64,000 bases of DNA from an uncultured Holophagales bacterium (GTDB lineage: Bacteria > Acidobacteriota > Thermoanaerobaculia > Multivoradales > UBA5704). Made by a program: the position numbers and the translations under genes. Numbering within the stretch: the stretch's first letter is position 1; every line of letters starts with the position of its first letter. The stretch is from NCBI GenBank assembly GCA_963842525.1, contig CAWJGT010000003.1, forward strand, positions 1,760,001 through 1,824,000. The letters are read 5' to 3'. Under the pieces are notes generated by a model. It saw only the letters and a list, made by a program, of their open reading frames with translations, was not told the origin of the DNA and did not search any database. This document shows positions 19,860 to 61,219 of the stretch, in pieces.

Positions 19860-22800
19860 TCATCGTTCTACGAGCTCCTCGGCCTTGAGCAGGTCGGGGT
19901 GACCGGCTGCTTCTTCGACCTTCGCCGGACCTCGCTCGGCCCGCGCGATGCACGTTCCCAGGATCTCGGCGAGGGTTTCCACGTGGGGCGCTTCGATGAT
20001 CGTCTGGTGGTTGCCGGGGATGGTGTGGACCTCCACGCCGCCCGCTGCGACGGCACCCCAGCCGAGGGTGGGGTCCTCGAAAATCTGCCGCCGTTGCGGG
20101 GGCAATTCCCGGAGGGCGGCCGGATCGACGCTGCTCGCCCGCAACAGGGTGATCCTTCCAGGATAGGTGGAAACCCTGTAGCGTTCGCCGGCCGTCGCTC
20201 TGGAGCTCCACCCCAGGGCCAGACCGCGCAGCAGCGGGATGTCGAAACCCGGTCCGAGCGCCTCCATGCTTCCGAGGATCTCCAGGCCCCGCGCGAGCTG
20301 GGCTTCGAGGGGAAGACCGCGCAGCTCGTCTGCATGGAGCACCGGCGCAGGCTCCTGGCCGCCGGTGTGGTGCCGCACCATGTCGGCGATGACGGCCGCG
20401 GTGTCGACTACCGCAGCTTCGTCGCCCGAAGGAACCCCCTCATCCAGGAGGGCGAGCAGCGCCACCTCCTCTCCGGCGCTGGTGAGCTGTCGCGCCATCT
20501 CGAACGCGACGATCCCGCCGAAAGAGTACCCGGCCAGGAGGTAGGGGCCGGCGGGCTGAAGGCTCCGCACGGCATCGAGGTACTCGGCCGCCATCTCTTC
20601 GCTCGTGACCTGCGGCGCTTCGGCCTGCCCGTCCAGAGGGCGTGCCTGGAGGCCGTAGACCGGCTGGTCTGTGCCGAGCTCGCGGGCGAGGCGGTAATAG
20701 TAGAGGACCTCTCCCCCCAGCGCATGGACGCAGAAGAGCGGCGTCCGCGTCCCGAGGGGCTGGATCGGCACCAGCGGCGACCAGGGGGTGCCACCCTCCT
20801 CCTCGAGCCGCGGGGCTGTCAAAACCTCCTTGCTTTCCCGGCCGTGCTGGATCAGTTGCCGCAACGCGCCGGCATAGGCTGCGGCCAGTCGCTCCGCGGT
20901 CTCCCGGCGATGCGTCCGCGAGCCGTAGGTCAAAGTGATCCGGAGCCGGCCCTCGGCCACCATGCCGACGATCTCCAACGGGTGGGTGCGGTGGGCGCGC
21001 GGGCTCCGGCTGGGGCCGGCGGAGGCTGTGGAAGCCTGGAAAAGAGAGCTCTCCTCGGAGGTGGCGTCGACCTGGCCCAGATAGTTGAAGAGGATCTCGG
21101 CTGCCGGAGCCGCTTCCAAATGATGGCGCAACAGACGGTAGCCGATCCCGCGCCCGGGCACGGCGCGCAAGCGCTCCCTGGCGCTCACCAGGGTGTCGCC
21201 GGGACCGGCGTCGCCCGCCTCCAGGACAACCGGGTACAGGGAGGTGAACCAGCCCACGGTGCGCGAGACGTCGAGGTCGTCGACGTCGCCAAAAACCGGC
21301 TCGCGGCCGTGCCCTTCCAGGTCGACCCGCAGGCGCGGGGAGCCGGTCCAGTCCGCCAGAGCCCGGACCAGGGCGCTGAGCAGCGCATCGTCGATGCGAT
21401 TGTGGTAGACCGACGGCAGGGTCTGGAGCAGGTCCGCGGTCTCTTCGGCGCTGAGCTCGAAGGCAACCGTGGCCTCGTCGCCCACGAGATTGCCGCCGGG
21501 GAAGTCCGCCGGCAGGCGGGGCACGGGAACCAGGGCCGTCTCGCGCCAGTGATCCAGCTCTCGGGCCAACGCCTCCGAGCCGGCATGCCCGGTCAGGCGG
21601 CGAGCCCACTCCTGATACGAGGTGGTTTTGGGCGGCAAGGTAGCTTGACGGTAGGCCCCCTCGAGGTCTTCGAGCAGGATGCGCCAGGAGACTCCGTCCA
21701 CCACCAGGTGGTGGGTGACCCAGAGGAGCCGTGCCGGGTGCGCGGCACCAGCGTGGAACAAGGCGAGGCGGGTGAGGGGGCCGGCCGACAGGTCGAAGCC
21801 TGCCTGGAGAACCGCGGCCGCCCGCTCGAAGGCCTCGCCCTGGCGAGGCGCCGGCAAGCCCGAAAGGTCGATCTGATGGAAGGGCGCCACCGGCTCGGCC
21901 AGCGCATTCTCCTGCCGCCAGCCGTCTGCCTGGACATTGAACCGTATGCGCAAGGCGTCGTGGTGCTCCACGATGGCGGCCATGGCGTGTTCCAGGGCGG
22001 CGGGGGCGAGGGGCACTTGGGACTCCAGCAGGAGGGCCTGGTTGAAGTGGTGGGGGTCCGCAAAGTCCTGCGCGAAGAACCAGCGCTGGATCGGGGTGAG
22101 CGGCACCTCACCCGCCACCGGCCCCTGCTCAACACGGGAGGCACCGGTGCTATCTGTGGCCTTGGCATGGCGGGCGAGCCCGGCCACGGTCTGGTGCTCG
22201 AAAATCTGCCGCATGGTGAAGTGCAGACCGGCCTGACGCGCCCGGGCCACGATCTGGACGGAGAGGATCGAATCGCCGCCGAGCTCGAAAAAGTTGTCGT
22301 TCACCCCCACCCGTGGCAGGCGCAGGACCTGCGCCCAGACAGCCGCCAGGAGCTCCTCCTCGCGAGTACGTGGCGCCACGTACCCGGACGCCGCGCCGGG
22401 CTGCTCCGGAGCCGGCAGGGCTTTCCTGTCCACCTTGCCGTTCGCGGTGAGGGGGAGCGCCGCGAGCCTGACGAAGGCGGCGGGTACCATGGGCTCCGGC
22501 AGCCGCTCCCGCAAGGCCTGGCGCAGCGCGCCGGCCGGGGCGTCACCCACCACGTACGCGACCAGACGCTTCTCGGATCGATCCTCCCGCGGTTGATCCC
22601 CGCGCGCCAGCACGACCGCCTCGCGGACTCCGGGCAGTGCTGTCAGTGCCGCCTCGATCTCGCCCAGCTCGATGCGCACGCCGCGGATCTTGACCTGGTG
22701 GTCCAGGCGGCCGAGGTACTCGATGGCCCCGTCGGTGCGCCGCCGCGCCAAGTCGCCGGTGCGGTAGACGCGCTCGCCGGGCTCCCTTCCCTCGGGGTCC

Positions 22801-61219: not shown

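Follow-up and report, generated by a model that had tools for sequence, protein, structure and literature searches.

A probable single-gene nonribosomal peptide-polyketide megasynthase, broken by nine indels as assembled, in an uncultured soil acidobacterium

The megasynthase gene and its domains

The DNA analysed here, referred to as the window, is a 64,000-nucleotide stretch of the genome of an uncultured Holophagales bacterium of the Acidobacteriota family UBA5704 (assembly GCA_963842525.1, contig CAWJGT010000003.1; G000:C3:1760001-1824000 in the numbering used below, where G000 is this genome). The assembly comprises 9.95 Mb in 34 contigs, has 68% G+C and is rated 96% complete. Between positions 61219 and 19860 of the minus strand, the window carries a hybrid nonribosomal peptide synthetase-polyketide synthase (NRPS-PKS) megasynthase that is probably one gene of ~13,780 amino acids, its nine indels being most likely consensus errors rather than mutations. 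Unless marked otherwise, positions refer to the window, and the features of the gene lie on its minus strand.

As assembled, the gene is spread over six long frames: f1 at 48491-61828, f2 at 47103-48833, f0 at 35305-47217, f1 at 32342-35515, f0 at 26347-32799 and f2 at 19863-27200. Between 61828 and 19863 these frames overlap their neighbours by tens to hundreds of bases, all six contain NRPS or PKS Pfam domains, and several of these domains are divided by a change of frame; for the acyltransferase (AT), for example, one frame covers profile positions 1-149 and the following one 146-267. An intact frame exists only after nine corrections. When an X was placed at each break, translation from 61219 proceeded through 13,785 codons without a stop to a TGA at 19860-19862, giving a polypeptide of 1.49 MDa (1,493 kDa). 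The initial annotation had proposed a single ~41-kb gene, restored by adding two bases and removing seven, with every break inside a domain; the same tally was found here, and all nine breaks are of the one-base type and lie within domains.

The start codon is the ATG at 61219, with a GGAGG sequence 6 nt upstream. Homology with the orthologue in another metagenome-assembled genome (MAG), G031, begins at this ATG, and the 540 bases upstream of it are not coding-like. The intergenic region (61220-61785) separates the gene from a divergent response-regulator gene (61786-62448, plus strand).

Pfam searches and mapping of the gene's own domains as seeds on the DNA gave a colinear line of domains, FAAL-T, (C-A-T)x3, E, (C-A-T)x4, KS-AT-ACP, (C-A-T)x3, E, TE, where FAAL is a fatty acyl-AMP ligase, T and ACP are carrier domains, C, A and E are condensation, adenylation and epimerase domains, KS is a ketosynthase and TE a thioesterase. 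The order from FAAL to TE agrees with the earlier proposal that loading, elongation and release reside in one chain, and stop/start pairs between modules were looked for in this assembly and none was seen. The loading part (59210-61219) consists of a FAAL-like ligase (61219-59540), with Pfam AMP-binding and DIP2-like C-terminal domains, and a carrier (59452-59210) with its serine in GLDSL. Module 1 (56092-59185) comprises C1 (59185-57796), A1 (57727-56365) and T1 (56278-56092), and is followed by module 2 (C2, A2 and T2; 52930-56029), module 3 (C3, A3, T3 and E3; 48318-52822, with E3 at 49672-48318), module 4 (C4, A4 and T4; 45153-48266), and modules 5 and 6, each C-A-T (38832-45090). Module 7 (34894-38769) contains C7, an interrupted A7 (37362-35131) and T7. 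The PKS module (31611-34765) has a KS (34765-33631), an AT (33181-32308) and an ACP (31797-31611), and modules 8-10, each C-A-T (22175-31548), lead to the terminal E10 (22112-20778) and TE (20741-19956; the pair spans 19956-22112).

The gene thus has ten C-A-T sets, together with the carrier, C/E and TE catalytic motifs of modular type I NRPSs. Eleven of the 12 carrier serines were found by pattern, and that of the loading carrier was read by eye. HHxxxDG is present in both E domains and in nine of the ten C domains, the exception being C1 (HHVAADF). The TE has its serine in GYSFG and its histidine in GNH. The KS has its Cys-His-His triad in the motifs TACSSS, HGSGT and NVGH, and the ACP serine lies in LGGHSL; the PKS module matched Pfam ketoacyl-synt and Acyl_transf_1 and an NCBIfam type I PKS family (E 3e-199).

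The nine breaks and their probable origin

The unbroken orthologous proteins of three related genomes (G001, G008 and G018) served as rulers for placing the breaks. Against them, the frame changes at 48572, at 47172-47112, at 32672/32673 and at 26758-26765; there are two further changes in A7, near 35661 and 35508, and three in a methyltransferase domain inserted into A7, near 36691, 36339 and 36261. The breaks near 47159, 36691 and 26760 could be placed only to within a few bases. The matching places in G001, G008, G018 and G031 lie in contigs that are open end to end and that apparently come from short-read assemblies.

Break 1 (48569-48578, at 48572) is a missing base in E3. In the sense of the gene, the sequence is CTCTCTTTCC here, CTCTCTTTTCC in the paralogous E10 and CTCTCTCTTCC in G001, the T run being one base shorter than in E10. 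The strings given for this comparison in the initial annotation, GGAAAGAGAG at 48569 and GGAAAAGAGAG at 21038, are exact. A pattern scan of metagenomes for break 1 returned one contig (L106), which is 87.5% alike to the 3' E10 region, not to E3; it has a four-T run in frame and adds little on break 1.

Break 2 (47150-47184, near 47159) is a net loss of one base in a variable loop of C4, where GGAGACGG occurs twice and the loop is 8 bases longer than in G001 and G008. The loop of the paralogous C3 consists of three 9-base repeats, GGAAACGGN, that encode GNG-GNA-GNG, so break 2 is most simply read as two such 9-base repeats in which a run of G has lost one base. A pattern scan of metagenomes for break 2 gave no match.

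The remaining seven breaks are extra bases. Break 8 (32672-32674, at 32673) lies in the AT, where the sequence is GAGCTTCTCC here and GAGCTCTCC in G008 and G018 (TT versus T). Break 9 (26755-26766, near 26760) shifts A9 from f0 to f2 (...ARASV / VISDTRL...). The other five were compared with environmental sequence. Logan contigs from four runs labelled as soil or rhizosphere (X1-X4, from three studies) were aligned to positions 28700-48690 at a likeness of at least 90%; they were 90-99% alike to the window and covered the methyltransferase insert with up to 199 of 200 letters identical. At break 3 (36685-36695, near 36691), where the methyltransferase passes from f0 to f2, each of three soil contigs falls one letter short of the window. 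The extra base of break 4 (36339) is left out at full depth in contigs of X1, X2 and X4, and that of break 5 (36261) in one contig each of X3 and X4. In A7, the base of break 6 (35661) is absent from an X4 contig (17.8 of 17.8 in depth), and that of break 7 (35508) from contigs of X3 (98% alike; 7.3 of 7.3) and X4 (10.3 of 10.3). The X3 piece over 35370-36022 is two letters shorter than the window and differs from it in 13 of 651 letters. A further, compensating pair appears in the soil contigs, with a base added at 36185 and one left out at 36192. Among the contigs listed, one is a letter shorter across 32673, the site of break 8. The population thus carries an in-frame version, while the state of the assembled organism itself is not proven by these contigs.

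Frame breaks are not confined to this gene. When the gene's own domain seeds were run over the whole genome, 61 of the 644 groups of C, A and KS domains outside the window were split between frames, with 74 shifts over 743 kb of domain DNA (1.0 per 10 kb); the window, scored in the same way, had 2 of 23 groups split (0.8 per 10 kb). Among eight housekeeping families searched in G000, rpoC, gyrA, dnaE, ileS and valS were intact, while breaks were found in rpoB, in secA and in one copy of uvrA. The first 69 profile positions of rpoB lie in another frame than the rest (G000:C9:670320-670723; ...RETCSLDFV / YSIGDWQCK..., one break). Since rpoB is essential, this break marks consensus errors in the assembly. 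One secA copy changes frame three times (C23, 266680-268993) and the second copy twice (C21:94846-96648), and a uvrA copy (C3:1070969-1073734) leaves the frame and returns to it (two breaks), the copy on C24 being intact. Within the window, a flanking carbamoyltransferase (3035-4814, minus strand) is divided between two overlapping frames, with its N domain at 3156-4814 and its C domain at 3035-4207. A study of long-read soil metagenomes likewise states that a correction tool was needed to keep frameshifts in such NRPS assemblies to a minimum (PMC12818350).

The orthologous cluster in a 30-contig genome, G016 (L011-L014; G016:C3:1-80000), is also distributed over many frames, suggesting similar assembly noise. 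G016 was dropped as a frame comparator because its own copy is frame-noisy.

From this genome-wide frame noise, rpoB and secA included, and from the relatives and near-identical contigs that lack the extra bases, we consider with good confidence that the indels are errors. Several observations weigh against this. Taken at face value, break 2 is an exact tandem duplication of 8 bases and could have arisen as a true mutation. Within A7, five of the nine breaks crowd into 1.2 kb, a density above that of the genome as a whole. The deletion at 35661 was not found at its exact place in X3 (0 of 7.3) or X2 (0 of 4.33), and the base at 36261 was absent in only part of the depth (4.24 of 7.68 in X3 and 12.3 of 28.1 in X4). 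Even the best run contains a fraction of only 0.14 of the sampled words, and all of the soil contigs come from relatives or other strains. No listed soil contig covers the breaks at 48572 and ~47159, and 26760 is outside the stretch compared, so that these three have the support of orthologues and paralogues only.

If the indels were instead real, the gene would be a decaying pseudogene without a product. The nine breaks in 41 kb as assembled, the duplication at break 2, the cluster in A7 and the structure of module 2 (which lacks an E domain despite a carrier and tail of the kind found before epimerases) would all fit such decay. However, rpoB, secA and about one tenth of the other NRPS/PKS domains are broken at a similar rate, the corrected frame is free of stops over all 13,785 codons with every catalytic motif checked intact, and near-identical soil contigs lack the extra bases. 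We therefore regard decay as improbable, and consensus error as the better account of the nine breaks.

Module 2 deserves a separate description. C3 and C4 share 84% identity with each other but only ~30% with the remaining C domains, whose mutual identity is 70-85%. Because C4 (with HHLLLDG) directly follows an epimerase, C3 and C4 are presumably of the type that accepts D donors. C3 directly follows T2 with no epimerase in between, and T2 has the carrier motif GGDSI, otherwise common only to the two carriers that precede E domains. In 52830-52930, T2 is followed by a 23-residue stretch resembling the tail of an E domain, and no E domain. A pre-epimerase carrier and E tail without the domain itself could be the scar of a deletion that impairs function, which again counts against an intact synthetase. 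In G031 too, ahead of module 3, a carrier leads straight into a C domain of the D-acceptor type with no intervening E domain, so this is no scar special to G000; at the place matching window 52830-52930, G008 has both a complete E domain and a gene boundary. Some condensation domains (dual E/C) also epimerise. C3 may be of this type, or residue 2 may arrive in the D form; in either case residue 2 may be D.

Fusion and exchange among relatives

The closest architecture was found in G031, a Thermoanaerobaculia bacterium MAG, whose uncharacterised orthologue lies on contig C137 (100564-141549). It shares the FAAL-T start, the ten NRPS modules, the KS-AT-ACP after module 7, the E domains after modules 3 and 10 and the TE, and its amino-acid identity to G000 over the T-KS-AT part is 81%. 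In contrast to G000, it is divided into two open reading frames (ORFs) of 4,350 and 9,311 codons by a stop after E3, its A7 contains no methyltransferase, and its A codes differ at modules 2, 3, 4, 7 and 9. Read with the Stachelhaus code, the G031 codes presumably correspond to Ala, Thr, X, Ile/Val-like, Thr, Thr, Leu-like, malonate, Leu-like, Asn and Ser on the same scaffold. The flanks of the two loci have nothing in common and are not syntenic. G001, G008 and G018 carry further variants, that of G001 with one extra module. A shorter relative is present in another Thermoanaerobaculia MAG (L024, locus positions 2-21349) as one ORF of at least 7,116 codons, with the order FAAL-C-A-T x3, KS-AT, ~2.3 kb of unassigned sequence, T, and C-A-T x2.

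The E3-C4 junction (48270-48335) is in frame in G000, whereas G031, G001 and G008 all have a stop and a new start at the matching place (...AEPD/ADDD, stop, then a new start; the first ORF of G031 ends in ...LAALLAEPD-stop). We take this junction to resemble a docking (COM-type) junction. The frame in G000 is fixed by the orthologues on both sides, and the junction differs from that of G001 by 17 bases; it is therefore not a one-base artefact. At a different E-C joint, on a short-read contig, G001 itself has an almost identical fused junction, LASLLPDLKDVEDIYPL. On the sequences compared, the single-gene form is a real difference from the relatives, two genes having become one through an in-frame fusion between an epimerase and a condensation domain, and several A domains having been exchanged.

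An alternative is that the real system consists of two or more genes, and that the single frame arose through errors near a boundary. Such a boundary is what three relatives have, each with a stop and new start after an E domain, and break 1 is only ~250 bases upstream of the matching junction. Yet the G000 junction itself has neither stop nor start and is at least 17 bases, not one, away from the split version, the fused form recurs in the short-read G001 contig, and no other break falls between modules. We consider it highly unlikely that the single gene is an artefact of this kind.

Misassembly, joining or collapsing paralogous modules into a false order, has about as little probability as a hidden gene boundary. 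Repeats are certainly at hand: the C domains of the modules are 70-85% identical, module number and order vary among the relatives, and a paralogous cluster exists on the same contig (G000:C3:555686-583474, minus strand; 76% identical DNA over parts), which includes an intact 9,263-codon ORF and has more modules upstream to ~624 kb, several of them frame-split. The order in G000 nevertheless matches that of G031, an independent short-read assembly in which the locus lies on a 211-kb contig, and repeats at 70-85% identity are not usually collapsed. No joints for another order were seen in the soil contigs; those that do occur there arise from related domains, their short sides being 20-29 letters long.

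Very long synthetase genes have been described before. Kolossin synthetase is encoded by 49.1 kb (1.8 MDa, 15 modules) and SelB by 59.9 kb (2.2 MDa), in each case with loading, elongation and release in one very long frame (PMC10589681). The G000 gene is smaller than both (41.4 kb, 1.49 MDa), is a PKS hybrid, starts with a FAAL and belongs to an uncultured acidobacterial genome, differences that are drawn from descriptions of those systems; its single frame also needs nine corrections. The initial annotation had put the enzyme at ~1.5 MDa, near the size of kolossin synthetase; its mass was borne out, and it falls short of the 1.8 MDa of that enzyme. Intact ORFs in G000 reach 10,975 codons (C9:1549473-1582397), the next being the 9,263-codon ORF of the paralogous cluster. 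The genome contains 317 C-domain, ~305 A-domain and 45 KS groups, with ~0.77 Mb of C, A and KS DNA in its 9.95 Mb. Exceptional numbers of NRPS/PKS modules with uncharacterised products have been noted for UBA5704 (PMC10640626; PMC12818350; preprint 10.1101/2021.05.10.443473). The lineage is thus already known for its richness in such clusters, and the size of the enzyme is below the known records. Its single-chain form is plausible.

The myxoprincomide biosynthetic gene cluster of Myxococcus xanthus is described as a single gene, mxan_3779, also an NRPS/PKS hybrid (PMC11619377). An orthologue of this Myxococcus type was considered and rejected: the relatives of the G000 gene are in Thermoanaerobaculia-type MAGs, and the myxobacterial T-KS-AT matches are ~50% identical and belong to other, shorter architectures. 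Comparison of the architectures of these myxobacterial loci gave no evidence of orthology with the myxoprincomide synthetase.

The methyltransferase insert and the predicted product

The match of A7 to its seed halts at seed position 105 and resumes at position 134, just before the a3 motif. The interruption is an insert of 870 bases (~290 aa; 36181-37050) between motifs a2 and a3, for which no clear Pfam match was obtained in the long frame. As assembled, it is split over three frames, with a motif for binding S-adenosylmethionine (SAM) in f0, the rest of the fold in f2 and NELRFRYD in f1, after which A7 resumes in f0. Type IV S-methyltransferases inserted between a2 and a3, Ms(S,a2-a3), are characterised in PMC8341866 by three motifs: (i) VLExGxGxG, (ii) Dx(V/I)x(L/I)AS(T/V/A)xQF(F/L)PxxxY(L/T) and (iii) x(E/V)LxxR(Y/F)D. 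All three were found in the insert by pattern, one in each of the three frames. The insert also has the diagnostic Ala at the position that a SAM-binding Asn occupies in N-methylating domains, and the L and R of motif iii are separated by two residues. The motifs of type V, GGWx(S/N)x(Y/F) and NSV(V/I)(Q/E), were searched for in the insert by pattern, and neither was found. In its a2-a3 site, motifs i-iii and a Cys-like A code, the insert resembles the TioN-type family 3 domains, A2Ms(S)A3; at ~290 aa it is at the upper edge of the size given there for the TioN type, 260 +/- 25 (PMC8341866). A tblastn search with A7 found no methyltransferase insert in G031, G001 or G008. TioN is a stand-alone protein, and the domain here lies within a megasynthase module. 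Because the type IV motifs fit and those of type V are absent, residue 7 is probably S-methyl-cysteine.

The ten-residue A codes were extracted from a MAFFT alignment with conserved A-domain motifs as anchors, and their meanings were assigned from Stachelhaus codes. In this way we take A1 and A9 (both DLFNNALTYK) to specify Ala, A3 (DLTKVGEVGK) Asn, A4 (DALWLGGTFK) Val, A5 and A6 (both DFWNIGMVHK) Thr, A7 (DLYDLSLVWK) a Cys-like residue, A8 (DAW(S/L)LGLVVK) a Leu-like residue and A10 (DVWHVSLVDK) Ser; the code of A2 (DVWDYGAIDK) was assigned to no residue. The resulting order, Ala, X, Asn, Val, Thr, Thr, Cys-like, malonate, Leu-like, Ala and Ser with epimerases after residues 3 and 10, reproduces the peptide proposed initially. 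No ketoreductase, dehydratase or enoyl reductase match was found in the PKS module, and none lies between the AT and the ACP, which agrees with retention of the beta-keto group. The AT specificity motif is QAFHS.

Synthesis would then start with the FAAL, which would put a fatty acid on the first carrier, and C1 would condense the acyl group with Ala. Modules 2-7 would add the residue of A2, Asn (epimerised by E3), Val, two Thr and Cys, the last presumably S-methylated on its carrier by the TioN-type methyltransferase embedded in A7. KS-AT-ACP would add one malonate unit and leave its beta-keto group, and modules 8-10 would add the Leu-like residue, Ala and Ser (epimerised by E10), before the TE frees the chain through hydrolysis or ring closure.

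Four points weigh against parts of this scheme. The best NCBIfam matches of the loading ligase are FAAL subfamilies (E 2e-135), at 452 bits below the curated cut-off of 775 bits. The active site of the AT (32840-32850) reads GYSLG and not the canonical GHSxG, with the serine kept and the His replaced by Tyr; the domain is also the one cut by break 8. A second, pairwise extraction returned the same A codes except at position 278 of A4 and A8. Finally, the meanings of the codes were assigned by comparison with Stachelhaus codes and not computed.

Literature on myxoprincomide and mxan_3779, on Thermoanaerobaculia NRPSs, on erutacidin and trigintamicin, and on UBA5704 yielded no characterised cluster of this architecture. 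The product of the gene is uncharacterised, and the initial description of the compound as unfamiliar stands on these literature searches. Taking the evidence together, we lean slightly towards the complete picture: a single 1.49-MDa, 12-carrier polypeptide that would have arisen by in-frame fusion of two genes at an epimerase-condensation docking junction and by insertion of an adenylation domain of the TioN type, with its S-methylating activity. Its product would be a lipodecapeptide not described before, containing S-methyl-cysteine, one gamma-amino-beta-keto unit and as many as three D residues.

If this picture is true, the split and fused forms in related soil genomes constitute a natural experiment on docking junctions and on the exchange of adenylation domains. 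A natural pair of split and fused E-C junctions, together with module swaps among close relatives, would be of use for NRPS engineering. The prediction is also specific enough to serve as a target for peptide synthesis (a fatty acyl group, ten residues and one malonate unit, probably with S-methyl-Cys), from an uncultured soil lineage with very many NRPS clusters that lack known products. A caution applies to other genes of this genome: breaks occur at ~1-2 per 10 kb and affect rpoB and secA as well, so that a giant gene found broken in this assembly should be called neither a pseudogene nor intact without accurate reads.

Domain annotation of the window flanks revealed no obvious tailoring or export genes next to the megasynthase. 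Two flanking genes may also contain frame breaks. At 4827-9183 (minus strand), an ORF with DUF3857 and transglutaminase domains and a TPR ORF in a different frame have ~740 bases in common, and at 14880-15485 on the plus strand an ABC ATPase ORF stops at profile position 102 of 137. The downstream flank further encodes a PIN-domain protein (580-1086), a Uma2-family endonuclease (14231-14842) and a double-HTH protein with a weak GIY-YIG match (17079-17759).

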